NCBI GenBank assembly: GCA_965235115.1
Contig: OZ249436.1
Span: 1,056,001-1,120,000, forward strand
Reading direction: 5' to 3'
Source: Laetmonice hystrix
Taxonomy: Eukaryota
Length of the DNA stretch: 64,000 bases
The notes below the pieces were generated by a model, which saw only the letters and a program-made list of their open reading frames with translations, ran no database searches and was not told the origin of the DNA. Positions within the stretch are counted from its first letter, which is position 1, and every line of letters begins with the position of its first letter. The translations under genes and the position numbers were made by a program. Positions 4,359-58,400 of the stretch are shown here, piece by piece.

Positions 4359-5928
4359 ACCATTATGAAAAATTCCCTTTGACTTTTCGTACGCGGACGT
4401 GCGTCGCGGATCTCTCACGAGTTTTCCTGTGCAATCTTTGTCAGGGTATTTTCTTGTACCGTGACATTAGATTGTGACAGATAACGTAAGACAGTTGTAC
4501 CCACATACAGGTGAATTTTACCCACATACAGGGGATTTTTTACCCACATACAGGTAATTCAGCGAGGAGCAAGATTCAGTCTTAGGTTTGCATTTTGACA
4601 GGCCCCCGTCTGTATGTAATGGAAACCAGGACATTCTCGCGATATTTTTATGACGCGCTATTTTCATTCACTCGCGTGTCTTTTTTCATCTCGATTCCGA
4701 AGATTCACCTTGATATTTTCGGACGTGCATTTTTTGCAACGTGTCTCTCGCGGATTCTGTTGTCGACACCGTCCTGGTCCCGTCGTACTGATGAAACCCT
4801 AGGAATTCCTATTGATGGTAGGTATTGATCTTTACGTTTAAGTTGTCATGTCTCGTCCATGTCTTTGTCTTTGTCCTGTTTTATTATTCCAAATTAAGAC
4901 TCGATGTTAAACTCGGAATTTGGCACTTTGGTTGGCATTTATTTTTAATATTTTTACTTGCTAAATTACTGAGCCACGGATCCAGGTATATTTCGATATA
5001 AAGTTCACCTGTCTTTTGGCTCAGTATAAAAGTGTCCTTAAATTTTGATCCTTCGCACTTTCTTTTGATTAAGGTAAGTTATCTACTGGGAGTGTGAACG
5101 ATCTTAATTTATGGACATTGTTTTAGGAGTATTCCAAAGGCGGTGGTGATGAAATCAATGAACCATCGGGAACTGTGAAAGACTACAACGTGATGTTGCA
5201 GATCGAATCTGTGAAACGATGGTCGTAGTCGTCATTGAATCACCACCGTATAATATCTGAAAGATCTCATAACAAAGAATCGCTCATAATCTGAATTTGT
5301 TAAACATTGAAAGTTTTTTCTTCTTTCTCTTGCTGCCGCACGGTGCTGTTCCTGCTGGTAGGCCTACTCATGATATGAAATCTTTGAACAGACAAAAATC
5401 TGTTCTTAATATTTGCGTACATAACTTCAGGGCCGTAGCCTGCCCCAAAATGTCAGGGGGGCAGTGTCCTATGAACATTAACCAGATAGGCCTAACGCGT
5501 GATAGCGCGTCATTGCGCCGGTCGAGCTGGGTTACAAAAAAATGAAATCCCAGGGGGGCAGTTGTTCCCCTTGCCCCCCCCCCTAGGCTACTGCCCGCAG
5601 GCTACGGCCACATGTGATAGCTCGACACCAGGAAATTGTACATTGGTGTTCACAGAATGTAGGAACTTTTCTTTCAATTTCTTTTGGGTATGTACCCGAC
5701 CCTTCAGCATGGCGTTGCAGCTCTGGTGGTTGCAGGTATTTCACTGCGCCAATACGTTCCTAAAAGCAAGCGTCACACCTGATGGCTAACTTACAGATCC
5801 AGAGGCCTGCTCGATGTTTCATGCAGGCAAAGGCTACTGACATTTCTTCACACGTCAGTGAGTCGCAAAACAACAGACCCAAACAATAGAGCGTCTAATA
5901 ATAGTCTGTCCCTGCGACTGGCGTTCTT

Positions 5929-6217
5929 ATTTGCATATCAAATAGGTATCAAGACATGCTCACGTGATTAGAGAGGGCGCTCACGTCGCAATTTTGCTGG
6001 GTAGTTTTCAAAATACACAAATGTATCCGTTTATGTTCACTAAAACAAATTTTACAGACGTAAAATGTCAATCAAAATTTGCTTTTAATCTTTACCTAAG
6101 ACCTGTAGTACTTGAATACTTCTAATTTCGCCGGAACTCTGTTTGTATCCTAGCATAACGTTGAGTGTATGTGCACACCCTTTCTGTGGTCCTCGACCTG
6201 GAGGGGGATATATAAAG
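5929..6217 (+). promoter_or_regulatory. Possible type-3 Pol III (U6-like) upstream promoter: octamer plus TATA
   Basis: ATTTGCAT at 5929-36 and TATATAAAG at 6209-17. Only a weak PSE-like CACACCCTTTC near 6173. Confidence 0.35.
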
Positions 6218-6242
6218 CAATTGGTCCCACTGTAGTAATGTA

Positions 6243-6557
6243 GGGAACAGCGAGACGCCGGTCTCCACGTTCGGTCGTAGTCTGGAAACAGACGCTGTTG
6301 AAAACCTGACAGTACGAAGAGTTCGGCTCGGTTGGTGTGTGTCCACTTGGAGAGGTGAGGCTGTAACTCGGCGATAAGTGTGACACAACTCTTCTAAAGG
6401 GATGTAGCAATACAACCCGTACCCCGTCAGTGGGCTCAATCTGCGGCAAGGTTCCAAATCAGTTGTCTCTCAATGGGTTATCGTGTGTTCGCCAGACGCC
6501 AGATCTTCGAACGGTATAGGAATTGGACCAAGTCTCAAGGATCAGTTCCCCTTTTTT
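6243..6557 (+). ncRNA. Candidate structured non-coding RNA (~315 nt), family unassigned
   Basis: Many nested helices and two GNRA-capped hairpins. The 5' GGGAAC is complementary to 3' GTTCCC, immediately followed by T6 (6552-57). TATATAAAG lies about 32 nt upstream. Confidence 0.55.
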
Positions 6558-7137
6558 AGTACTCTGAATTTTTAGTTATCTCAGCTCGATACAAATGATA
6601 ATAAAAAGTGTCCTGAGACACTCTAGTCCCAGAACTTGATTCTTCCGTGATCATCTGAAGTCAGTCAAATAAACTTTTATTGATGGACTTGGAGGAATAT
6701 GTGCATTCAGAACTAACAACTGAATACCTGTGGTTTTGAACTGTACCTGTGTGTCATGCATTATGGTTTTGAATCTTACATATAGGGGGAGAACTGAATA
6801 AAAGAATACTTTGATTGTTGGCTGTGCATGGGGTTGAAGTGACATGACAAACTTTTGGTCAGTTGGTGACATGACAAACTTTAAGCCTGAGTCGAAAGCC
6901 TGGTTTGGATGACATTCACACCCATTGGCCCTGTGTGACACTAACCTGGCAGGGTGCTTTTTGATGTCCGTGTCAGTTGTTCATGATGTCAATAACGAGT
7001 TTAAAGACTATAGGCCTACTATTTCATAATTGTCAAAGGGGTACTTAGTAAATTCCATGTGAATAAAAATAACCTCCAGAGGTAAAGTCGGCACGGCAGT
7101 AGGCTACCTGCGGAACAGTTGCTATTATATCGGAACA

Positions 7138-7486: not shown

Positions 7487-7807
7487 TCACTGGTGCTGGT
7501 CGTCATTGCCCTCGCACACCTCCTCCCAGTCGATCTGAAACTCCTCTATGAGGCGGTCCTCCATATCGTCCAGGAGGTCGGCACGGCTGTTGGCATACTC
7601 CCAGAACATGTTCCTCACTCCCTCCAGGGTGACCAGACCGAGGCGGTTGTGGTAGCGGAAGGAGCGGCGGTTCTTGCGGACGGCACGGTCGTGTTTGGTC
7701 TTCATTTCCTTGATACGGTTGTTGAGGAGATTGATTTGCTGACAGGCCACCTTGAACTTGCGGTCCATCTGGCGCATCTCAGAGATGAGTTTATCAACTG
7801 GAGCCAT
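7487..7807 (-). CDS. Uncharacterised single-exon 106-aa helical protein (MAPVDKLISEMRQMDRKF...)
   Basis: ATG at 7807. GC-rich, codon-like composition with charged helical sequence and acidic tail. TATATT about 85 nt upstream on the minus strand. Confidence 0.7.
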   Translation of the reverse strand: MAPVDKLISEMRQMDRKFKVACQQINLLNNRIKEMKTKHDRAVRKNRRSFRYHNRLGLVTLEGVRNMFWEYANSRADLLDDMEDRLIEEFQIDWEEVCEGNDDQHQ

Positions 7808-8202
7808 GACTGTAGTAAAATATTCTGAGTGAATTGTTGCAAGCTGAAGGCTTAACGATGATTGTTTCCAAGTAATGCTGGTGCCCGTAATATATGGTGG
7901 GAAAGAATCAGTGTGGAGGTGAGTGTTGATGGCAAGAAGCGGTCGTGAGGTGCGATAAAGGGTGCTCACTTTGAGCTAGTCGCTCAATTGACACCTGACA
8001 AATGTGTTAGACGCTGTAGCCCTGACAGCATGGCCGCCTATTTTCGAATTTGGCGTGAAGTCATTAGAAGCCGGTAGCAGTTCTCGCCCAATCGGATAAT
8101 TACATCACTGTCTTTTTATCTCATGGCGTTAATTCGTTCAGCCCTACGTCTACTTAGTACTCCCTCCGTAAGAGGTCGCCACCGTGTTCATAGTGAGCCA
8201 AA

Positions 8203-8603: not shown

Positions 8604-10423
8604 TACGGAAGCGTATTGCTGCCACATGAAGAAAAAAAATTATTGTTTGTACGACTTAGTAAGTCGTACGTACGACTTAGTATCTCGTACGTACGACTTA
8701 GTATCTCGTACGTACGACTTAGTAAGTCGTACGTACGACTTAGTATCTCGTACGTACGACTTAGTAAGTCGGACGTACGACTTAGTATCTCGTACGTACG
8801 ACTTACTAAGTCGTACGTACGACTTAGTAAGTCCGAGGGGGCCGACTGTGCTGAGGCGGCCCGAGGCAGAGTAGACTGGGCCCGTTGGTGTGCCCACAAT
8901 GGGCCATATAGTCATAGACCTGGTCTAGGTGTGCAGAGGTTGGTTCAGAGTGAGCCGGGACTAGAGTTATGACTCGGCCTAGACGTCTATCTTTCTTTCT
9001 CTCCTTCTTTTCCTTCTTTCCTTCTTTATAATTCCTTCTTTCCTTTTTTTCCAATCTTCCTTCCTTCCTTCCTTTCCTCCTACCTTCCTTTCTCTTTTTT
9101 TATCTCTCTCTCTCTTTTTCTTTCTCTACAGTCTTTTTTTTCGTTTTTCATTCTTTCCCATTCTTTCATTCATTCTTTGTTTCGTTCATTCATTCTTTCA
9201 TTATTCTTTCTTTCATTCAATCGTTCATTCTTTCTTTTTCCATTCATTCTTTCAGTCGTTCTTTCTTTCATTCATTCAGTCACTGTCGAGTCTCTATTTG
9301 CTATTCTCTCAAGCTTCACCCTCCTCCATCATTCTCCCACTACTACCCGTCCCCTCCCTCCCCCTCCCTCCCTCCCTCCCTCCCTCCCTCCCTCCCTCCC
9401 TCCCTCCCTCCCTCCCTCCCTCCCTCCCTCCCTCCCTCCCTCCCTCCCTCCCTCACTCACTCACTCACTCACTCACTCTGTTCCCTCCATCCCTCACTCA
9501 CTCTACCCCCTCCCTCTCCCCCTCTACCTCCCTCTCTCTCTCTCTCCTCCCCTTTCTCCCTCTACACCCTCCCTCCCTCTCGCTAGACACTCCCTCCCTC
9601 ATCACTGTACCCCCTCCCTCTCTCACCCTACCCGTCCCTCTCTCACTCTACTCTCTCCCCTCTCTCTCCATCTCTATTTCTCTTTCACTCCAATCTCACT
9701 CCCTCGCTCCCATGAGCGTGCCCCTCACCCCCTCTCTGTCTCTATTTCCCTCGCTCTACTCTCTCTCCATCTCTAATTCTCTCCGCTCTCCCCCTCTCTC
9801 TAGTCTCTGTATATTCTTTATAAATATCTTTTGCGCTCCCCCTCTGTCCCCTCCCTTCCTCGCGCCCTCCCTCTCTTGGTGAGGGCTGACAGTATTCTTA
9901 TTTATATTTTGCATATGTTTCAGGTTAATACTGAAACAATTCCCTTCATGGATGAACAGACACTTGCAACGTATCTGCCAGTACTGGGCGGTGCGTAAAC
10001 ATGTCCGCAATGTTCTCAAATTGACAACAATTCCATTGATATGGGCAAGACATTCTAAAATGTCAGCGTGCTATTGAGGACCATTGTAAAATGAAGGCAG
10101 ACTGCCTCATTCGCTGCCATGTTGATGAGCAGTGCGAGTGATGTGCGCATGCGTTCTTAAGTCGTACGTACGAGATACTAAGTCGTACGTACGACTTACT
10201 AAGTCGTACGTACGAGATACTAAGTCGTACGTACGACTTACTAAGTCGTACGTACGAGATACTAAGTCGTACGTACGACTTACTAAGTCGTACGTACGAC
10301 TTACTAAGTCGTACGTACGACTTACTAAGTCGTACGTACGACTTACTAAGTCGTACGTACGACTTACTAAGTCGTACAAACAATAATTTTTTTTTCTTCA
10401 TGTGGCAGCAATACGCTTCCGTA
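8604..10423. mobile_element. Foldback-like non-autonomous DNA element whose long TIRs are made of 21-bp repeats
   Basis: tacggaagcgtattgctgccacatgaag at 8604 is inverted at 10396-10423. Both arms carry (tcgtacgtacgacttagta..)n. TA flanks, and a CT-rich low-complexity interior. Confidence 0.85.
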
Positions 10424-11207: not shown

Positions 11208-13270
11208 CTAGCTAGTGCCATCACGTAGCGCTGAAAGTAGTTTCCCCAAGGTATTTGTTCCTTTGTAGCTACTAGTCTTGAGCAGAGGAGAGGTAATGGA
11301 GCACCCAGCTCCCCAATAGGAGTCCGCGGTGGCCTCAACAAGGTCAAATCCAGCTGTCGCAAGCAGAGCCTCTCGCAGGGCGGGATGCGAGTTGAATTTT
11401 GCCATGAGTGCAGTTTGCATTGTGGGTTCCCGGCGATTAATCCATGAGGAGCCCTGCTTTATTTTCACTTTATCCCCGAGTTTTTTTATCCTGGCTGGAT
11501 CGGTGGATTTCATGATGGCGTCTGCGATTTCATCATTACCTTCATTTAGTGCTTTCATGTGCTGAGAGGCTTGCTCAACACATAGGTAGGAGTTTCCATT
11601 GACAACAATTTCACCCGGGTAAAAGTTGGATAGAGGAGAATAGCGCGATGCAAAAGCAATTTCTTTATCATTAACCTTCAGAGTCTTTGCAGAACTGAGT
11701 GACAACCTTTCTGGGAGATGATGAAAAGAATTGAAGGAGTAGCGCTTGCCGTCCACCGTGCACTGATCAGATTGAGCCTTGGCCTCGATTCCCTTGCTTT
11801 TGGCAAAGTTCACCACTGACCTGATCGCTCCCCTCCTTTCCTTGATTTGGCTCGGTAGATCCTCGTTTATCCAGATTGTGGGGAGACGTCCCTTAAGTTT
11901 TGTCCGGGCCATGAACACAGCGTCGCGATCCAGATGGCGGGGAAAACGAACGAGTATAGAGCGATGGAGTCCTTTGTGAGGTTTGCCTATTCTATGTATT
12001 TTGTCTAGGTCTTTGTCGCCTAGGCCAATTCCCAATTCTTTGTTAATTAGGTTAAGGATTATGTTGCGCACGTTTTCAGTTTCAGTTTCAGGAACATTGT
12101 CAATAAGGAGGTTATGACGACGGCTGTACAACTCCAGTTGAGTAAAGTCTTCTCTCAACAATGCCAATTCAGCTTCAAAACATGCTGATTTCTTTTTTTC
12201 CTTTTCCAGCTCGGTTTTCAAGGAGGTTATATCTTCAACTGTAGAGCTGTAGCTGGAGTTTAATTTATTAAGTTTATCCGTGACAGATTTAAGTTCATGT
12301 TTAACTTCGAGAGAAGAGCTAAGGAGGATGTTAATTTTCTCTTCCAGAGATGTTGATACGCCAGTAGGGTTAAGCCGGCCACACACCAAGGAAACTGGGT
12401 CAGTCGCAGAGACTGACCAGTTTTATGGCGCTAAGACTAGGTGTGTGCCCCCCGCACACACCGAGCCGACTCCCGACTGACAGTCGTTGATGCGATGGAT
12501 GCGCCCCACCCGGAAATTTTCCATACTAAGCATGCAACTACAGCGCGACATGTAGAACTTTGCTCAAACCACCAAAGTAAGCAGTTTGCGATTGCGCAAC
12601 TTCGAGTACGTCGTACAGGATCGAAAATTGATCAAATCCATCCAGGTGAAATGAATGGCACTTAAACAAATCATGCTATCCTGCCATGATACTGCCCCGG
12701 CTGTTAAGTTAAAATAGTCCTTCAATAATATAATTTAGTTTATAATTATGGAAAATGGACCCGAAATTTGTTGGTGGTTTGAGTCTGATGCATGTGCTTG
12801 CCATCCAGTGCTCCAACACAATGAGGAAAATTCCACTTTTCCTCAAACTCTGCTGCTACTTTCTTCCATGCCTCTCCATGTCCGTATGGACACTAGGCCT
12901 ATATGGATCACATGACACGAATCATCACATGGTACTTTGCGGAGCACTGATTGGCTTTTGCCTCTCAGCCGACTAAAGACTGCCGACTGTCAACACACAC
13001 CGAGTCGGGAGTCGGGAGTCGCAGTCTTTCATATTCAACATGTTTAATCTGAAAAACTGGCCGTCGCCGACTGGCAAAAACCGTCTCGTCGGGTCGTAGG
13101 CGCGCACACACCAAGGAAACTGTCCAGTCCGGTCGGGTCGGATGACCCAGTTTCTCTGGTGTGTGGCCGGCTTTAGTGTTCAGCAGTACCTGTGTATCAT
13201 TATCGCTGATCACAGAAGAGTTGGTGGATGGAGTGGTTCTCGTAGCCATTCTTCCTCTGCTGTATGCCAT
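11208..13270 (-). pseudogene. LINE ORF1-like (coiled coil plus RRM) protein fused to a NADAR/YbiA-like domain, interrupted by a MITE
   Basis: ORF 11208-12389 has ORF1-type motifs (LELYSRRHNLLIDNVPE..IHRIG..RSILVRF..INEDL), then NADAR motifs (PLSNFY..EQASQHMKA..KKLG..AKF..LREALLAT..LVEA..DSYWG.G..N.LGKLL..LR). Removing 12373-13172 plus one TTA joins MAYSRGRMATRTT..QVLLNT to NPTGVS in frame (419 aa). Confidence 0.8.
12373..13172. mobile_element. PIF/Harbinger-type MITE
   Basis: TIRs agccggccacacacca / tggtgtgtggccggct, with TTA on both sides (12370-72, 13173-75). Confidence 0.85.
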
Positions 13271-37300: not shown

Positions 37301-40300
37301 ACTGAATCATGTCGCCAAGCTGTCTCAACAAAATGACAACTACGGCTTCGCGATCGAGCATCTCCATCGCGAAGCTGGTACGAACGTGTCGCCACCGGTG
37401 GATCAGGGCCATTACTGTGGTAACCGGCGACACCCCATGGGGGGGGGGGGGGGGTGTCGTAGGATTTTAAAAAGAGGCGCAGGGCCACTTTTTGAAACCC
37501 ATTATGTGGGTTCAAACTTCAAACTTCAACATGGCGGAAGGAGGGCATGTGGTAGAAGTGAGAAGAGATAAGGCGCCGAAAATATACCACCCGCGTCTGG
37601 ACCCAATCGGCCACTTCCCGGTCCATCAGTTTCTAAGACGATATATAGAATTGATCGGCAATCTGCAGTGGAGCTTTGTGATGCATATGACAGAGGAGGG
37701 TAATGCACCACTGCACAGGACCCCAGAGGTGGAGGGGTTAACTGCCATTCAACGAATAAGTATATATTGTTTAATGTAAAAGGAAAGGTATGTAATGAAT
37801 TTATAACTTTAACATATCTGATAAATACCTATAGTGTTTCCAGCTGTTTGGCATGTAAGATTTATTAAAAATTTTAACATAATTATTTTAATGTTGGATA
37901 TCAGGAAAAAAATTAAATAAACTCTGGCCTCCTGAACTGTGTCACGACGCCACCCCTGCACACATATAATTCTTGTCTTGCTGTAAAATAATGACTATAG
38001 TACTAATCAACAATGATGAATTAAATATAAAAAAAAAAATTATCGGCTGGGATTCGAACCCCAGACTTCTGCCATGAAGCGCCTACACTCTACTACTGAG
38101 CCAACCATACACAGTGATAACTTAGGCCGATGTATTAGGCCTTTGTCATATCATTGTGTTATAGCAGGCATACGTCATAGGTCACGTGACCTAAAAATAT
38201 GTCTATTGGTGTCGAATAGTAACTATGGGTCCAAGTTTACAAGTTATAGCCTTGAGAAAATATAGATGACCTCCTTATGACTTTAGAAGTCACGTGACCT
38301 AAAAAATAATGTATAAATGAAGGAGGATATGACTTTCTACCAGTGTTTACTAGGAACTATGGTTTTATCTTCAACCATTTACAAGTTACACCCATAAGAA
38401 AAGAAAGATCATATCCTTATAAGGTCTTAGGTCATGTGGCCTAAAAAATGGTGTCAAAGGAAAGAGCATATGCGACTTCCTATTAGCATTTAATAGTAAC
38501 TGTGGCTCTACGTTCAACCAGTCACAAGTTATCGCCCTGTGAATATATAGATTATCTCCTGATGATGTCATAAGTCACGTGACCTAAAAAATAATGGTGC
38601 CAAACAGAAGAGCATATATGACTTCCTATTAGTGTTCAGTAGTAACTATGACCCCAAGTTCAACCATTTACAAGTTATAGACCTCTGAATGTATAGATCA
38701 TGTCCTGATGACGTCATAGGTCACGTGACCTAAAAAATAATGGTGTATAATGAAAGAGCATATATGACTTCCTATACATATCTATAGTAAGTTTGACTCT
38801 ATCTTGCACCTTTGTTGAGTTATAGCCCTATATTCAGACCCATGTTCGAGGTCACGTGACTTCCTCAATACCATCGTTACGTTACATGTCGTGGAATCGT
38901 GCGACACTACAACTATATTTTTGACGACAGCACCTGCGACGTTTACAAGTGTCGGACGACAAAATCGTCGATTTATGTACTAACTTCATTTGTTGTGGAC
39001 GATATTTTTTATGAAACGAAATGAACGACAGGTCGGGCGAAGATCGTCCAGCCAGTGTCGTCAACGTCCGACAATGACGACTAACGACACCAGTTTATGA
39101 AACACCCCCATGGTCAAGTAATGGTAAGTTTTGCATTTCCGTCATCAATTAACTGTGGAGATCAACTCGTCAATAAGTATTTTTGGTATGCCCACTTAGA
39201 CGCAGTGCCCGTGCTGGGGTGTCCGACGCCCGACTCGGTGCAGTGTATGGAGGGTCACAGCCAGTGTTTTACCCGAGCGTCTACTTGTGTGTACGACACT
39301 CAGGTGGTAGACGCTAGTTCCGGTTACAGCGTCCAGATGTCGTGTCGTAACGGCTTCCACCTCCGCTCTCACTGTGGTACGACTTCCGACCTTACGACCC
39401 CGGGCACTGTAATGATCCTTAGGCCCTGTTCATACAGAAAGCGACGCGACGCACCGCGACCCTGGGCACTGTAATGGGACTTACACTAATACGATTATTT
39501 CCATCATTAGATCACAGATTTCTCCGGTAACAAGTAGAGTGCAGGCGATGTAAAAGGTTGTTTTGTATTCTGACAACACTTGGATGGATGATGTCTCATG
39601 CCAGAAATTGACAATCAACCTTGGAATTAATCCAGCGTTACTTTTATCTAAAGGTTCTGTTGATTGCCCGGGAATGTTCCACTGCCCAGGCTCCTACTGT
39701 ATACCGTTTGGTAAGGTTTGTGATGGCCACGTGGACTGTCCAATGGCGGAGGATGAGAGGAGTTGTGACAATTACACCTGTCCAGGTAAGTTCTAACTGT
39801 CCCTTGACACTGTTCTCCCGAGTTCCAAAGCCAGACCTGACCTAAAAAGATATTTTGACAAAAAGAATTGTTCATATCCATAATTGAATGTCGTTAAATC
39901 TCACACGAAATACAATTAGTTTCTGTTCGATTAATACACTTTTCTCGTTGAATCCGTTTTTCTCCAAGAAAATACCAAATAAAAATAATTACCAGCTCAC
40001 AACAAGGTAAGACGCGGTCTGTCATGAGAACATGATATTGCACTTCGTAATAAACATGAATCTCTAAATGATTGAAGATCCGATCAAGACTCAGTTGAGG
40101 ATGTAGACATTATAAATAGCTCCTATCTTATTTGGATGTCAGGTCTGTTCCGCTGTAAAGATGAACCTCACTGCATTTCCCACGACAAGGTTTGTGACGG
40201 GGAAATCCACTGCAAGATACATGGATCAGACGAGAAATATTGCACTGAAAAGGGTACGTGGATTTTAATTGCTGACGTAGTCAACATTTTCTAACGTTAT

Positions 40301-43300
40301 TATAATTATTTAGACCTAACCTTTTTCTTTCTGTCGGCAGATACATTGTGCAGCCAAGGTTGTAGATGTCGAGGTAATATGATATCTTGTGTCCACGCCA
40401 ACCTTACACATCTACGGACACCGAACACCTCGGCAACAAGACCAGTACGGGCCCTCTTACTCCAGCACAATCAGCTCAATGTAACACGACAAACATTCGC
40501 TGGAATGCATTGGCTTGGACGACTCGATCTCAGCTACAATAACATAACATACCTCGAACCAGGAGTCTTCAAGGACCTACGCAATTTGTTTGAACTCATC
40601 CTTAGTTACAATGAACTGGTGTCAATTGATCAGGGTGTTTTCACCGGGCTAAGGTCGTTAAGGATTCTTAATCTCCATGGTAATAAACTGGTTAAATTAC
40701 AGGCCGATGACCTTTCTGAACTTGTCAACCTGCAGCATTTGATCATCACCGATAACGACTTGAGTAAGGTTTCCGAGAACGCTTTCCTTCCCCTGACGAA
40801 CCTAGAAGAAATCAATACGGATGCCTACAAGTTTTGTTGCATTGCTAAACACGTCGACGTTTGTACTCCTGAACCTGATGAGTTTTCTTCCTGCGAGGAC
40901 CTTATGGCCAATAAGGCCCTCCAGGTGAGCATATGGGTTCTGGGGCTGTGTGCCTTTGTAGGCAATGCCTTCGTCATCATTTGGCGGATAGTCACAGATC
41001 GTTCAAAGGTTTCTTCTTTCTTTATAATCAACCTGGGACTATCAGATTTCTTGATGGGTCTGTACATGTTGATCATTGCTGCGGCTGATGTCCACTACCG
41101 CGGGACGTATATAGTAAACGCCGAGTACTGGCGGTCAAGCGTTGGCTGTCAGATTGCTGGTATTCTGGCCATGGTCTCCAGTGAAGTGTCTGTGTTCATG
41201 CTGACTGCTATAACGGCTGACCGTATGTTGAACTTCTTGATGCCACTGAAGGCGGGCAGTTTCCGGATGAAACACGCCCGTTATGTGGCGGGTGTGGGCT
41301 GGGGTGTGGGCATCATGCTCAGTGTCCTGCCTGCACTCGGAATCCCCTACTTCGGAGACGCCTTTTTTGGTCGCACAGGTACGTGCTCCTTGTGCTCTTT
41401 ACATCAGAAAACCCTTCTGGGTGTCTCACTGTCATCGACATGTAGTCCATGTTCTATCAACCTTTTTATTTAGTGTTATAAACAATAACCTTCTAGTATA
41501 CTTGGTTCAAACATGTTTGTGTGCATGCCTGTATCCAGGTGTGTGTCTCCCTTTTCACCTGAGTAACGAACGCCTGCCTGGGTGGGAATACTCGGTGTTC
41601 ATCTTCCTGGTCGTCAACTTCATCTCCTTCGTCTTCATCTTCGTCGGGTAAGGAAACTTGTCCCATACTCACTGAGTAACTCCTCGTTCTGTTCTAATCT
41701 ACATGCTTTGACCCTAGTGCTATCTTTGGCAGATACGTTGCGATATTTTGGATCGTTTCCAAGTCCTCCCGACAGGTTCAGTCAACCTCGGCTTTGGATG
41801 AGTACTCGCTGGCCAAAAAGATGGCGTTGATCGTAGGAACGGATTTACTCTGTTGGGTACGTGATTTCTAACGTATTCCATGGCAGAAGAAAATCTCAGA
41901 GGTCATTCTTTGACCTTCATATATATACACATCATTCTTCCACTTCAAGCAGGAATAAAAAGAAACTGCGTTTTTAAAAGTAGATAGAACCGGTTGATGA
42001 CAAGGCCCGTACTACGGAAGCCGAGAATGCTGAAATCAATGAAATAAAATAAAACACGCTTTAATACATCGCGCGAAAAATAAAATCTCGCGAGATTTTT
42101 TTTTCTCATGAGTATTATTTATCGCGCGATTTTTTAAAGACGTGTTTTATTTTATTTCATTGATTTCAATGGTAGCATTCTCGGCTTCCGTACTACGCCG
42201 TCACTTGTATTGTATTTATGCCATTGGCAGGTTCCTATCATCTTGATTGGATTCTCAGCGCTAGGTGGCGCCACTATTCCTCCCCAAGTGGCCGCTTGGA
42301 TCGCTGTGTTCGTGCTGCCCCTCAACTCGGCCGTCAACCCGATCCTCTACACCTTCTCGGCCATAGACTGTCAATGGTGGGTCCATTATTAAACATAATG
42401 TAGGCTACTACTAGTCGAATGACATCTAGCTTGCACCGGGGGATTTTTTTTCTGATTGAGCCCCTTTTTCACAGTTTCCCTCCCTTTCGAAGTCCGCGAT
42501 CATTCTGTCCTTGGAACCGTAAAGGTCTATATACACTGGCGCGATTTTTGCCACGAACTCGAGTTCGTCCGAAGTTCGTAAGGTTTTGCGAATTCGTAGG
42601 AAAGATTGCAGAGGTGGGAGCCAAGTCCTTAAGTGTTCGTACGATTGCGTGGAAATTCGCAAGCAGCAATGTGAATGGAGTTCGTTAGCAAAAGTCGAAT
42701 TCGTACGATCAACGACGAACGTCGAAAATTTCATCCTTAAGCTGTATCCTAACTGGACGCGTGCGACGCGAGCGACGCGCGCGTTTTTTTTAGAAGTAAT
42801 GGAAATGAATTGAGCCATCTGCACTGGCCGCGCGCGACGCGCGCGTCATTTTTTGTGACGCGCGCGTCGCGACACAGATAGGACTGGTTCTATTTTTGTC
42901 GCGCTACGCGCGCGACAAAAGACATCTTGACTAATCAGAAGTGAGATCTACGACCTTGAACTTTGTTCAAGAGCGTCAAGAGACTAATATACACCTATAC
43001 ACGCCTATACCCTACTCATTTTTAATTAATTTTAACACTGACGGTGTATCTCAGGGAAGCCCCGAGCTATTATGTAGGCCTATACCTCTAGAACTCTCAT
43101 TCAAGAGCATGAGCTTTAATTCGTAATGCAAACAATTATGAATTGTTTTCCTGTGCCCCCTCCCTCTTTAGGCTTTAGTGATACCCTGGACCCCCAATTG
43201 ATAGACGCGCATTTATACAGGTCTATATGTTCCCAGGCCCGTAGCCTATACGCAGACGTATCACGCGCATCTGGTGAAGATAGAAAAAAGATCGCGTCGC

Positions 43301-52400: not shown

Positions 52401-55400
52401 GGTTTGGCAGTCTTTGTCCCACCACCAGGTGCATTGTGATCGGACGATTCGACCAGACTATTCATAGTGTGGACAGCGACAGAAGACGACAAACCTTTAT
52501 GTCGCCTCACGGTATTCCTGGTCCTGTAAGAAATAAAATGCGAGAGAGAGAGGCAGAGAGTAAGTAGAATTAAATCATCGATCATGTTAAACAATGGCTG
52601 AGAGGATGGGAAAGGAGAGTCGTTGTTTGTAGGCCTTAAAGGGGCACATTATGAGGAAACGTGAAAAATCTGTATTTCAAAGAACTTTTGCTGTTTTCAT
52701 AAAGAGATCCTTCATTAAAATTGCTTGGTAGACTTATCAGTTTCATTTTGCGTGAGAAATCGAAGTTTATGAAGCTCCCTTGCCCGCTTCTCTCCCGATT
52801 TCGTAAATTTTTTTGGGTCGAGTGCAACTGCTGAATTGTTTACAGCTAAACAAAGCACGTGACTAAGCACATGCAGAGAGTGCACACGCAGGATGTGACG
52901 CAGTACGCGATTACACGGGTTGATGGGAGGTTGTCTACCAAATTATGGCGAGAGATGTGCTATCGGGAGAAATCTATAGGTTTGGTCGTATAGAACCTAC
53001 TTGTGCTGCATACGCAGCGAAAACACGTCGGAGGACAAAATGCTGTGATAGGATTATTTACTTGGATCCCTAGTACACGATCATGTTGGATAATTGCCGG
53101 AAATCCTCAAAAACGTGTTTCATAGCATACCCCTTTAAGACATCCACGTGTTCCGAATAGAACTGAAATAACTTCAGTGATTAATTTGGCTAACACTAGG
53201 CAGCTATTTGGGCGGATGCAGGATTTTGAAAGGGGGTGGGGTGTTCAAGTAGGAAATTTGTCAAAAGTGGGTTAATCCTGCACTCTGTAATTCCACTGCA
53301 TCAACGGCTGCAATCCATACTGCATTAGTATACCAGACCCGTACGTAGGATTTTTCGTGGGGAGTGAGGGGCGGGGGTGCGTGTCCTCAGAAAATGGATC
53401 TTTGTGAGTTATACGTACAACGCCTTGGGGAGAAGGCCGTTTTCCATTAAATCAAATAAAATACAGAACAAAAACGGTTGCCATAAATGAATTTAATTAA
53501 TGAATTTGCGAGCCCCATCTTTAATCTTTCAGTAGCGTTCCTAATTCAAGTCTCCTGGGATGTTTTCCCGCAAAGATGTACACAACATGGTCTTCAATGC
53601 ATTTAGTACTTTCAAACAGTGGACTTTGGTTATAGGGGTGGTGATGGTGCGTACGCACCCTTCGCACCCCCTGCGTACGGGCCTGGGTAGGCCTACTACT
53701 GAGGGGAGTTTAAAAGTCCCCTTACTGCCTGGATTAAATTTGACTGGTACTACATTGTGACAATGTTAATGGACCCACCGTCGACAGTCTATGGCCGAGA
53801 AGGTGTAGAGGATCGGGTTGACGGCCGAGTTAAGGGGCAGCACGAACACAGCGATCCAAGCGGCCACTTGGGGAGCAATAGTGGCGCCACCTAGCGCTGA
53901 GAATCCAATCAAGATGATAGGAACCTGCCAACACATAAATCTGCAACTGATGACGGATGACCCAATCATCGACAACTTGAACAGTCCACGGTTTTATTAT
54001 GGTTCAAAACAGCACCCTTTTCTGTATGAAGGAGGAGTCCAAGATCCAAACATATTCAACTGGACCAACGAACCCAGCGTCTTTAATTTTAGGGGCGCCA
54101 CTTTTCTTTTGACTGTCAGTTTATGCATGTTTATCGGAGGCCGGATTTTCACGGACATTTCCGAAGATTGTCGAAGGCGCCGATGGATGCCAGAAATGGT
54201 GATCCCACTTACCCAACAGAGTAAATCTGTTCCTACGATCAACGCCATCTTTTTGGCGAGCGAGTACTCGTCCAAAGCCGCGGTAGACTGGACCTGTCGG
54301 GAGGACTTGGACACCATCCAAAATATCGCAACGTATCTGTGAAGTACAGAAGCTATCAAAGTAAAGAGATCAAGTCGAGTAGAACAGAACGAGGAGTTAC
54401 TCAGTGAGTATGGGACAAGTTTCCTTACCCGACGAAGATGAAGACGAAGGAGATGAAGTTGACGACTAGGAAGATGAACACCGAGTATTCCCACCCAGGC
54501 AGGCGTTCGTTACTCAGGTGGAAAGGGAGACACACACCTGGATACAGGCATGCACACAAACATGTTTGAACCAAGTATACTAGAAGGTTATTGTTTATAA
54601 CACTGAATAAAAAGGTAGATAGAAAATGGACTACATGTCGATGACAGTGAGACACCCAGAAGGGTTTTCTGATGTAAAGACCACAAGGAGCACGTACCTG
54701 TGCGACCAAAAAAGGCGTCTCCGAAGTAGGGGATTCCGAGTGTAGGCAGGACACTGAGCATGATGCCCACACCCCAGCCCACACCCGCCACATAACGGGC
54801 GTGTTTCATCCGGAATCTGCCAGCCTTCAGTGGCATCAAGAAGTTCAACATACGGTCAGCCGTTATAGCAGTCAGCATGAACACAGACACTTCACTGGAG
54901 ACCATGGCCAGAATACCAGCAATCTGACAGCCAACACTTGACCGCCAGTACTCGGCGTTTACTATATACGTCCCACGGTAGTGGACATCAGCCGCGGCAA
55001 TGATCAACATGTACAGACCCATCAAGAAATCTGATAGTCCCAGGTTGATTATAAAGAAGGAAGAAACCTTTGAACGATCTGTGACTATCCGCCAAATGAT
55101 GACGAAGGCATTGCCTACAAAGGCACACAGCCCCAGAACCCATATGCTCACCTGGAGGGCCTTATTGGCCATAAGGTCCTCGCAGGAAGAAAACTCATCA
55201 GGTTCAGGAGTACAAACGTCGACGTGTTTAGCAATGCAACAAAACTTGTAGGCATCCGTATTGATTTCTTCTAGGTTCGTCAGGGGAAGGAAAGCGTTCT
55301 CGGAAACCTTACTCAAGTCGTTATCGGTGATGATCAAATGCTGCAGGTTGACAAGTTCAGAAAGGTCATCGGCCTGTAATTTAACCAGTTTATTACCATG

Positions 55401-58400
55401 GAGATTAAGAATCCTTAACGACCTTAGCCCGGTGAAAACACCCTGATCAATTGTCACCAGTTCATTGTAACTAAGGATGAGTTCAAACAAATTGCGTAGG
55501 TCCTTGAAGACTCCTGGTTCGAGGTATGTTATGTTATTGTAGCTGAGATCGAGTCGTCCAAGCCAATGCATTCCAGCGAATGTTTGTCGTGTTACATTGA
55601 GCTGATTGTGCTGGAGTAAGAGGGCCCGTACTGGTCTTGTTTCCGAGGTGTTCGGTGTCCGTAGATGTGTAAGGTTGGCGTGGACACAAGATATCATATT
55701 ACCTCGACATCTACAACCTTGGCTGCACAATGTATCTGCCGACAGAAAGAAAAAGGTTAGGTCTAAATAATTATAATAACGTTAGAAAATGTTGACTACG
55801 TCAGCCATTAAAATCCACGTACCCTTTTCAGTGCAATATTTCTCGTCGGATCCATGTATCTTGCAGTGGATTTCCCCGTCACAAACCTTGTCGTGGGAAA
55901 TGCAGTGAGGTTCATCTTTACAGCGGAACAGACCTGACATCCAAATAAGATAGGAGCTATTTATAATGTCTACATCCTCAACTGAGTCTTGATCGGATCT
56001 TCAATCATTTAGAGATTCATGTTTATTACGAAGTGCAATATCATGTTCTCATGACAGACTGCGTCTTACCTTGTTGTGAGTTGGTAATTATTTTTATTTT
56101 ATATTTTCTTGAAGAAAAACGGATTTAAAGAGAAAAGTGTATTAATCGAACAGAAACTAATTGTATTTCGTGTGAGATTTAACGACATTCAATTATGGAT
56201 ATGAACAATTCTTCTTCAAATCGTAAAAAGACGGCCAGTTTTGGTCGGAGTAGGCCTCGTCAGGTCTGGCTTTGGTACTCGGGAGAACAGTGTCAAGGGA
56301 CAGTTAGAACTTACCTGGACAGGTGTAATTGTCACAACTCCTCTCATCCTCCGCCATTGGACAGTCCACATGGCCATCACAAACCTTACCAAACGGTATA
56401 CAGTAGGAGCCTGGGCAGTGGAACATTCCCGGGCAATCAACAGAACCTTTAGATAAAGATAAAGGTTACCTGAACAATGGAACTTTCCGGGGCAATCAAC
56501 AGAACCTTTAGATAAAAAAAATATATATAGGTGACCTGAACAATGGAACATTGACGGCAGATTAAAGGTACACAACATGAGATTGGGCAGAGTTGATGAC
56601 AGTCAGGCAACAGTACCTCAAGTAACGCTAGATTAATTCCAAGACTGACTCACGCGTCTCATGAAAAGGACAAGAGTGGATGGCTTAGCTTGATTTTGAA
56701 ATCTGGCATGAGACAGCATTCATTACATTATTGTCACACTGCAAAACGACCTTTTAAAAAGCCCGGCGCACACTGTGGAGACTTTGAGCAACTCCACGAA
56801 ACTGAAAAGTCGGCCAATCCCTGACGACTGGTTGCCGACTGCAGTCTCCACTTATTTCTGGGCCCCACTACTGAAGATTAAACATGTTTAATCTTCAGTT
56901 CCCCCAGACACTGAAAGTCGCCAACTAGTTGCCGACTGTCATGTTACCCAAAGCCTCCACAGTGTGCGGCGGACTTTACATGGCCTGGACTTTACTCGTT
57001 ACTGGAGAAATCTCTGCGCTAATGATAGTAACAATAGTAAGATAGTTGTGCCCTGTTAATACAGAACGCACAGTGGCACAGCACGCTGCTCGACACCCTC
57101 CAAAAATGTCCGATTTGTATGTTGTGTCCATTTGACCATTTTCTTTTAAACAGGACGTGCAGCACAGAGAATCGGTACCCTGTGCTGGTCCAGGTTCGCT
57201 CGCAGTGCGAAAGTGCGGCGTCGCTGTGCGTCGCGTCGCTTTCTGTATAAACAGGGCCTAACGATCATTACAGTGCCCGGCGTCGCTGTGCGTCGCGTCG
57301 CTTTCTGTATGAACAGGGCCTAACGATCATTACAGTGCCCGGGGTCGTAAGGTCGGAAGTCGTACCACAGTGAGAGCGGAGGTGGAAGCCGTTACGACAC
57401 GACATCTGGACGCTGTAACCGGAACTAGCGTCTACCACCTGAGTGTCGTACACACACGTAGACGCTCGGGTAAAACACTGGCTGTGACCCTCCATACACT
57501 GCACCGAGTCGGGCGTCGGACACCCTAGTAATACCGTGTGGTTCGCCACCGTCATATCCTCCTCTCTGATCAACGATATGGTGTCTGCTTCATCTAGGCA
57601 TCACAAAATGAAAATAGGTCAGATCCACTAAAGCGATTTTCCTTGCGACGTCCATGCGATTTTGACATCACCGTTTTATTTTACCGTGATTTTGAAATTA
57701 AAGGATAGAACCCATTTCCTGAAACAGGGAAGACCAGCCAGGAAAAATTTCAGAGTGAAATCCCACCATTGAATCAAAAATCGCATGGTCGTCGCCAGAG
57801 GAATCGCCTTAGTGGATTAGGCCCTTACATTTTATACGATGAGGCGGCAAAATTAGATCTATTTTGATCTTTCCATTGGTGATCCCTTTGATAATCTAAA
57901 TATTTACTTTCGCCAGTTGCCTATTATTTTACATAACCGAAAGCCAAACAGAATGGAAAATGCGATAAAATTAAATTACTTTCGTTTGTCCAAATTGTTG
58001 TTTAACTTACCTGCATATACAAGAATGCATATTTTCCCCAAACAAAATGACCATGTAGACTATGTTACGCTTGTAGTGTTAAATACAAACGTAAACGAAG
58101 GGACCAAAGCAAGCATAGTTATTTGCAGCGACCGCGTTTGAGGCATGCATTGATCATGCCACGTAACAATGCAGCCTGTGAACAGATCTACAGCAGAGAA
58201 CGAACCAAAACTGTAGAATGACCTTGCTCAGGGGCGTTTGGGGTCATGTCCAATAAAGCGTAGCTAGGCAGAGACAAAGCAAGCAGTTCATGCAGACAGC
58301 CATGATTATTGGGGCGCTATGCCGGGGGTGTAAACCATTGAACAGAAGTCACGCTCAAGTCGCAAACCTCTTAACGCATGACGTGTTTTCGCCTCGGTAG

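Follow-up and report, generated by a model that had tools for sequence, protein, structure and literature searches.

What kind of RNA, if any, is encoded by a segment of about 315 nucleotides that carries the promoter layout of a U6 gene and ends in a T6 terminator, and in which the signature motifs of the familiar RNAs of this class could not be recognized? This question is raised by a locus at positions 6243–6557 of a 64,000-nucleotide stretch of contig OZ249436.1 of Laetmonice hystrix (hereafter 'the window'; assembly GCA_965235115.1, positions 1,056,001 to 1,120,000 of the forward strand), the host genome being represented by a 627-Mb animal assembly. A preliminary description, made from the letters alone, had proposed a highly structured, undescribed or very divergent Pol III RNA or ribozyme, possibly carried by a larger element. 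The analysis presented here suggests that the locus belongs to a family of Pol III RNA genes of no known kind which was spread by DNA transposons, and that this family is real and probably functional.

Gene layout and promoter

Every sequence string quoted in the preliminary description was found where it had been placed, and all parts of the U6-type layout are present on the (+) strand. The octamer of the distal element, claimed at 5929, lies at 5929..5936 and is also retained in L063, a copy with diverged flanks. It is followed by a PSE (6175..6191), a TATA box (6209..6216) and the T6 terminator (6552..6557), and a sequence scan of the RNA gene detected no internal T4. The PSE is of the host type: comparison with the species' own U6 genes, which had been proposed as a check, revealed identity at 16 of 17 positions with the PSE of L025 and at 15 of 16 with that of L026. 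Measured from the start of the PSE, the TATA box follows at 34 nt, a distance it has in common with the U6 and 7SK genes of the host; the same spacing, counted from the PSE core ACACC, is found in four of five tabulated host U6 loci and in 7SK, and the PSE–TATA distance is 33–35 nt in L063 and in the further families B and C described below.

Two details had to be revised. The TATA box starts at −34 relative to 6243, and not at about −32. Moreover, because ACACC is located at −64 in 8/8 tabulated host type-3 genes (the starts of 7SK, RNase P and MRP having been set by eye for this purpose), transcription is predicted to start at 6239–6240 rather than near 6243, yielding a predicted Pol III RNA of ∼318 nt (6240..6557, +). 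Judged by PSE, TATA spacing, octamer and T-run, the locus is an unassigned type-3 Pol III RNA gene, which shares with U6, 7SK, RNase P and MRP of the host the offset between PSE core and TATA box, the octamer, the T-run and a 5′ purine. Unlike these genes, it encodes an RNA matching none of them in sequence or fold, and it is present in ∼1,400 transposon-borne copies, compared with 21 matches for U6 and 1–2 each for RNase P, MRP and 7SK. As a separate observation, L028 and L029 are U6 copies with altered sequence, the PSEs of which are quite unlike those of the main U6 arrays.

Comparison with known RNAs

Rfam 15 yielded nothing at gathering threshold within the window, and nothing credible at E ≤ 10 for families A and B, with a single chance match (E 8.9) around the locus. 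This search had been called for earlier, when no signature motifs of U6, 7SK, 7SL or RNase P/MRP had been recognized. The host genes for U6 (21 matches), RNase P (2), MRP (1) and 7SK (1 above cut-off) reside at separate loci, as does a candidate host telomerase RNA (L077:1501-1866; G000:C3:35531850-35532215) which, with E 1.8e-7, scores below the Rfam cut-off and exhibits template, pseudoknot, P6.1 and H/ACA parts. Alignments to host telomerase RNA, RNase P, MRP and 7SK remained at shuffle level in 24/24 tests (p 0.18–1.0), and a covariance model of the core (R1), scoring copies of families A, B and C at 97–318 bits, had zero matches among the 12 host ncRNA loci searched. Template, CR-I, SRP helix-8, Sm and B-box consensus patterns are absent from the RNA.

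Individual candidates were rejected on the following grounds. The 7SK RNA contains paired GAUC motifs and a free 3′ hairpin ahead of its U tail; at the present locus there is no RF00100 match, the GATC positions differ among families A, B and C, the 3′ end pairs with the 5′ end, and host 7SK is located elsewhere. In one account, 7SK is described as having 5′ and 3′ stem-loops (PMC8406779). For RNase P/MRP, the CR-I pattern is absent, the host genes are located elsewhere, and a P4-like helix (6450/6523) is paired in only 15/56 cells in family B. SRP RNA was dismissed in view of the missing helix-8 SRP54 motif and the lack of a match to the Rfam SRP models. As in the CR4/5 domain of telomerase RNA (RF00024 consensus; PMC8480181), a P6.1-like word is present at 6316–6329 in families A and C, and this word was reached in 1/20,000 shuffles, albeit picked post hoc. 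Unlike in CR4/5, the word is paired within a covarying helix and is missing in family B, the RNA lacks a template, and the telomerase RNA of the host is a separate locus. The latter retains the P6.1 stem-loop, which the same source reports as lost in protostomes and echinoderms (PMC8480181); its retention would loosely delimit the clade. The suggestion of a ribozyme was not borne out either, since no Rfam ribozyme match was obtained and neither A nor B contains the hammerhead core word. Resemblances to group I introns, Y RNA, twister and the middle body of SINEs were not common to A and B and were informally dropped. Scans of viral collections gave 1, 0 and 0 matches, a metagenome scan 3, and prokaryote genomes 0; these collections contain few animal genomes, and the 4/4 viral and metagenome matches are chance single-word matches, so that no homologue beyond this genome was found there.

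Carrier transposons and RNA families

The possibility that the gene is carried by a larger element was confirmed, although the carrier itself, a DNA transposon with terminal inverted repeats (TIRs), had been missed. Inverted repeats at both termini of the element exclude the alternative LTR reading. In the window, a 3′-truncated copy of the family-A element occupies 5428..6655 (+), an extent common to other copies; similarity among copies runs from 5428 to ∼750 bp beyond 6655, where the window copy ends, and the reverse (right) TIR was not found within the 64 kb. The left TIR (5428..5442, +) begins CAGGG and forms a 15-bp perfect pair in the full-length copies L012 and L003. Full-length elements measure ∼2.0 kb, with the RNA gene about mid-element, and all 40 scored genome matches to 6243–6557 exhibit 96–100% identity across nearly the full length. 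The leftmost ∼180 bp (5428..5609, +) resemble the end of a MITE, with an internal inverted arm 149–153 nt away, and the same TIR is also paired on its own elsewhere in the genome (896 exact matches, many paired at ∼170–190 bp). Hence, family A looks like a composite in which the gene was captured between MITE ends. A 5-bp target site duplication (TSD) is exact in 6/6 copies for which both TIRs were located, and inspection of the frames revealed no transposase-like or transposase-sized frame in the vehicles of families A, B1 and C (longest stop-free frames of 143, 153 and 106 aa, respectively). By its TIRs, its TSD and the lack of a transposase frame, family A is a non-autonomous TIR DNA transposon. 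A SINE was rejected: copies extend past the transcript, with upstream promoter and flanks up to the TIRs, and the B box is absent.

Families B and C were traced from loose ends in assembled sequencing runs. This genome harbours no fewer than three lineages of the RNA, and the three TIR vehicles carrying them are unrelated. A 20-mer of the family-A RNA, which also captures family C, has 739 genome matches versus 51 for the control; family B has 714 motif matches (control, 0) and family C, included in the 739, has 152 exact matches (control, 1), amounting to ∼1,400 motif matches for all families together. The family-B RNA is ∼375 nt long, with 76–78% identity to family A over ∼250 nt and unrelated flanks; all 10 loci cut possess their own PSE and TATA box, and a compensated terminal stem followed by a T-run. 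The sole complete B vehicle observed (B1; L087) measures 2.5 kb and has 167-bp TGTAGC TIRs and a 5-bp TSD. Four of the 10 loci (L082–L085) form tandem units of ∼4.5 kb that adjoin pieces of the promoter and coding region of histone H2B, and many other family-B matches in the genome are likewise spaced 4–5 kb apart. Family C carries an A-like RNA within an element of ∼1.15 kb with its own ∼80-bp TGTTCC TIRs and a 5-bp TSD that is exact in two of four copies and has one mismatch in the other two. At L063 and L076, no family A, B or C ends occur within about 1.1–1.3 kb, and non-mobile host loci may thus exist. A further copy (L073:410-700) combines a C-type 5′ end with an A-type 3′ flank and right TIR, satellite sequence replacing the promoter, and is possibly a recombinant. 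Run X4, which is small and of unknown kind, is dominated by an A-type variant that forms its deepest contig and has indels unlisted in runs X1–X3 (cf. L012:1614-1782).

Superfamily labels are tentative, since no transposase was linked to the vehicles and no autonomous partner was retrieved. As described in PMC12730594, hAT5 comprises hAT elements with 5-bp TSDs, and the CA…TG ends and 5-bp TSD of family A suggest the label 'hAT5-like'; judged by the same text, CA..TG ends and a TSD range of 2–5 bp also fit the CMCT clade. The account of Ginger2/TDD (PMC2836005) lists TGT termini, 4–5 bp TSDs and TIRs of 50–180 bp, and B1 and C, with TGT ends, long TIRs and 5-bp TSDs, appear Ginger-like. Family C differs from animal Ginger2, for which that text gives a 4-bp TSD and TGTNR ends (PMC2836005).

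The window contains several further features. A frame of 162 aa without a Pfam match (7487-7975, −) lies within a segment that is duplicated ∼9.5 kb upstream of the RNA gene (L002, 93% over 3.3 kb), and two inverted arrays of one near-palindromic 21-bp unit (8649-8833 and 10158-10377) have flanks in common. A 404-aa frame (11208-12422, −) encodes a NADAR domain (PF08719, E 7e-28) fused to a coiled-coil region which, on inspection, looks like LINE ORF1. Two near-identical frames for receptors with LRR and 7TM parts, in opposite orientation (40295-41473, + and 54588-55781, −), are accompanied by minisatellites of 70 and 73 bp in mirrored positions, an arrangement that suggests a large inverted duplication.

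Secondary structure

The RNA had been claimed to be highly structured. Its minimum free energy (MFE) does not bear this out: the z-score is −0.25, and 40 of 100 dinucleotide shuffles fold equally well, an outcome which the preliminary description itself had named as evidence to the contrary. Values for nine family-A copies range from +0.37 to −1.91 and those for seven further copies from −0.73 to −1.64. The case for a fold hence rests on comparison, and the compensatory changes that had been proposed as a check are present across families. Applied to 15 A and 8 B copies, RNAalifold arrives unaided at a rod (6264–6300 with 6471–6521), with double changes in 12 of 69 pairs. A 64-pair model comprising the rod and the middle domain, from which helices H8alt and H12 were left out, has 97.5% of 1454 cells paired and double changes at nine pairs versus 0–2 when the partners are slid. 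It exceeded the shuffle controls on three of five measures but not on the other two (93/500 and 458/500); the model was fitted to the same sequences, and the independent events are few, mainly one A/B split. Variants common among copies include four G-U and no A-C, a bias that points to an RNA from the (+) strand of the window.

These comparisons support a fold in which a long rod, closed end to end, bears two three-way junctions, and MFE folds of family B likewise give this architecture. All its parts are encoded on the (+) strand. The terminal stem, of which the matching 5′ GGGAAC and 3′ GTTCCC had been noticed, pairs 6243..6250 with 6543–6550, is compensated in family B and is thus maintained across families; A6249 is T in older copies, where the stem reaches eight pairs. 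In families A, B and C alike, a T-run comes next after this stem. The 5′ strand of the rod (6264..6300), long and irregular with nearly invariant internal loops, pairs with the 3′ strand (6471..6521), which contains a conserved 5-nt bulge at 6477–6481, and double changes occur at 6292/6484, 6293/6483 and 6298/6473. The middle domain (6306..6430) consists of the CTGAC/GTCAG helix, a long arm (6316–6394) with a conserved 12-nt loop, and a GNRA hairpin (6399–6418); a GC↔CG exchange in the GCAA hairpin, UA/UG/CG at 6347/6377 and two double changes at the tip of the arm represent its covariation. The third arm of the upper junction (6432..6469, conserved 7-nt loop 6447–6453), lying outside the 64-pair count, was delineated by eye and from family-B MFE folds.

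Much of the middle domain had thus been described correctly, with CTGAC/GTCAG, GAAGAGTT/AACTCTTC, the GTGTC-CACTT arm and the GCAA hairpin all retained, whereas GTACG/CGTAC pairs weakly in family B, at 24/32 cells. The 5′ and 3′ domains proposed at the same time (AACAGC/GCTGTT, GTCTG-GAAA-CAGAC, GGtTCCAA/TTGGACC and GTTCG/CGAAC) had to be abandoned: only 81% of their cells are paired and they are broken in family B, including the supposed GNRA hairpin GTCTG-GAAA-CAGAC, and AACAGC/GCTGTT shares its bases with the terminal stem. The long-range partners that replace them are paired in 97.5% of cells. GAGAC-gccg-GTCTC takes an intermediate position, its scored breakage in B being an alignment artefact; an equivalent tetraloop hairpin is possible in A, B and C, and may represent a folding intermediate. 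Two further pairings, CTGACAG/CTGYGG and a CCC/GGG hairpin, the latter broken in family C, compete with CTGAC/GTCAG.

Sequence conservation among copies

In order to avoid choosing copies by the RNA, we selected them by their downstream flank, which gave 29 loci (28 after removal of one duplicate); the analysis covered the 17 of these 28 in which the core is intact, the remaining 11 being omitted because they carried deletions or aligned poorly. Among the 17, the pairwise difference is 0.044 in the core as opposed to 0.099, 0.112 and 0.105 in three flank regions not used for selection. Shared alleles are depleted in the core (12/263 sites vs 105/826 in flanks, p=1.6e-4), and singletons are likewise about half as many (p=5e-8). 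Private changes in the 12 old copies number 37/3103 in the core versus 241/8025 in the flanks (p=6e-9); the five young copies do not differ in this respect between core and flanks (6/1151 vs 38/4775, p=0.44), in a test of low power. Two of the flank-picked copies, L033 and L042, have no private core changes at all (0/263 and 0/264) and 29/671 and 50/655 in their flanks, respectively. Likewise, L018, which was chosen by core similarity, and L012 have a common left end and differ at 11/314 core positions and at 167/942 positions in the flanks.

Six motif-selected copies show 91–96% identity in the core and 56–80% upstream (baseline 51%), and L063 shows 95% and 60%, respectively (random baseline 51%). 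In three vehicles with unrelated flanks, conservation ends at the predicted transcript and the promoter boxes, and the core-over-flank profile is alike in all four sequencing runs, which are of unknown kind. The GC content is 51% in the core and 38–43% in the flanks, with CpG being higher, not lower, in the core. The window copy itself carries a private change at 6361 within the conserved 12-nt loop (1/28 copies). Taken together, the pattern fits constraint on the propagating lineages followed by neutral decay; gene conversion or selection by the host might produce it as well.

Discussion

We favor the explanation that a protein-binding Pol III RNA is selected as cargo while its non-autonomous cut-and-paste carriers multiply, and would assign it a probability of roughly 0.45. 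According to this model, the snRNA-type Pol III machinery would produce an RNA of ∼318 nt (∼375 nt for family B) with 5′ G and 3′ oligo-U, which would fold into the elongated, imperfect rod and its pair of three-way junctions, with protein bound at the invariant bulges and loops. A decoy or scaffold is suggested, rather than a guide or template, because conserved unpaired sequence is confined to short loops and bulges, without any long conserved single strand, and because the RNA lacks complementarity to its own TIRs (the longest word common to the RNA and its own element ends is 7–8 nt). Protein binding would then be the natural reading, and a role as guide or template appears unlikely. In the weakest step of the model, an intact gene would aid re-mobilization of its own copy by transposases supplied in trans, possibly by keeping chromatin open and/or by titrating proteins of dsRNA sensing or small-RNA silencing; master copies would be under selection, and inserted copies would decay. 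That the vehicles are unrelated argues for a general benefit over a fit to a single transposase. The MFE values at shuffle level, the few independent events underlying the covariation and the low power of the young-copy test count against this explanation, as do L063 and L076, which are devoid of recognizable family ends, and the mutation of the window copy at 6361. Furthermore, any benefit exerted in trans is a public good, which selection can hardly favor one copy at a time.

A possible but less probable explanation is that the locus represents an undescribed host RNP RNA, that is, a housekeeping type-3 family, comprising two or more paralogues (A/C and B), which was passively captured several times; the host would select those copies that are expressed, and the transposon copies would be kept alike by gene conversion or by being recaptured repeatedly. 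Such an origin would account for L063 and L076 and for the tandem B units beside H2B fragments, and the unrelated vehicles speak against a transposase-specific role. It also has a fungal precedent in hAT-borne histone H3 of Pseudocercospora, where, according to the report (PMC6710886), an entire housekeeping gene was taken up and multiplied into hundreds of copies in a TIR element. However, the fungal copies are described there as inactivated (PMC6710886), and the present case differs in its constrained, non-coding RNA cargo with external promoter and in its three vehicles. In addition, constraint persisted after a single capture (L018/L012), L033 and L042 lack private core changes despite their diverged flanks, and ∼1,400 copies should weaken host selection on each copy.

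We consider it improbable that the RNA is a deeply diverged known RNA, most plausibly SRP RNA, or else 7SK, which today would serve as a decoy for its former partners. In SRP RNA, a long bulged helix runs into a junction from which a long arm and a GNRA hairpin emanate, and the comparison reveals similar size, transcription by Pol III, closed ends and overall topology; yet the blank Rfam result for A and B, the absent helix-8 motif, the shuffle-level alignments and the 0/12 outcome of model R1 all argue against such a derivation. Rather doubtful still is the proposal that there is no RNA function, and that gene conversion among copies, a lower mutability of GC-rich DNA or a cis element acting at the DNA level produced the pattern. 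The unremarkable MFE, the elevated core GC content and the halving of singletons in the core would be compatible with this; the compensatory double changes, the G-U-biased variation on one strand, the termination of conservation at transcript and promoter boxes in three vehicles, and the higher CpG content of the core argue against it. Least credible is a new class of catalytic RNA. The invariance of internal loops and junctions as well as the GNRA hairpin would be in keeping with it, but Rfam ribozyme matches and, in A and B, the hammerhead core word are absent, no covarying pseudoknot was found, and self-cleavage is unnecessary for a gene that is spread as DNA and possesses a promoter and a terminator of its own.

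Among known decoys, adenovirus VA RNA is a viral Pol III RNA which resembles the RNA of our favored explanation in its transcription by Pol III, closed terminal stem, imperfect duplex and carriage by a selfish replicon; the external U6-type promoter, the approximately two-fold larger size and the cellular transposon context set the present RNA apart. Promoter type and vehicles are of already known kinds; the novelty lies in the RNA and in the proposed selection for its carriage. Literature searches, which missed most subscription journals, and Rfam 15 provided no published account of such an arrangement; the carrier elements may be catalogued in Repbase or Dfam with the RNA overlooked.

To our knowledge, the known animal U6-type Pol III RNAs are few, and each of them has a central role. 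A new U6-type RNA of 320–375 nt with covariation support would thus be notable even if it turned out to be the product of a host gene. Captured cargo should decay once it resides in non-autonomous DNA transposons, and a constrained RNA gene in three unrelated vehicles makes it a testable question whether eukaryotic DNA transposons use ncRNAs for their spread. It is tempting to speculate, although we regard this as less likely than not, that a new class of 'passenger RNA genes' exists, in which a vehicle-independent Pol III RNA raises the mobility of any cut-and-paste carrier, acting, for example, as an anti-silencing decoy or as a scaffold for the transposition machinery. If true, such genes would constitute the RNA counterpart of transposon-encoded silencing suppressors and, in animal cells, an analogue of viral decoy RNAs.
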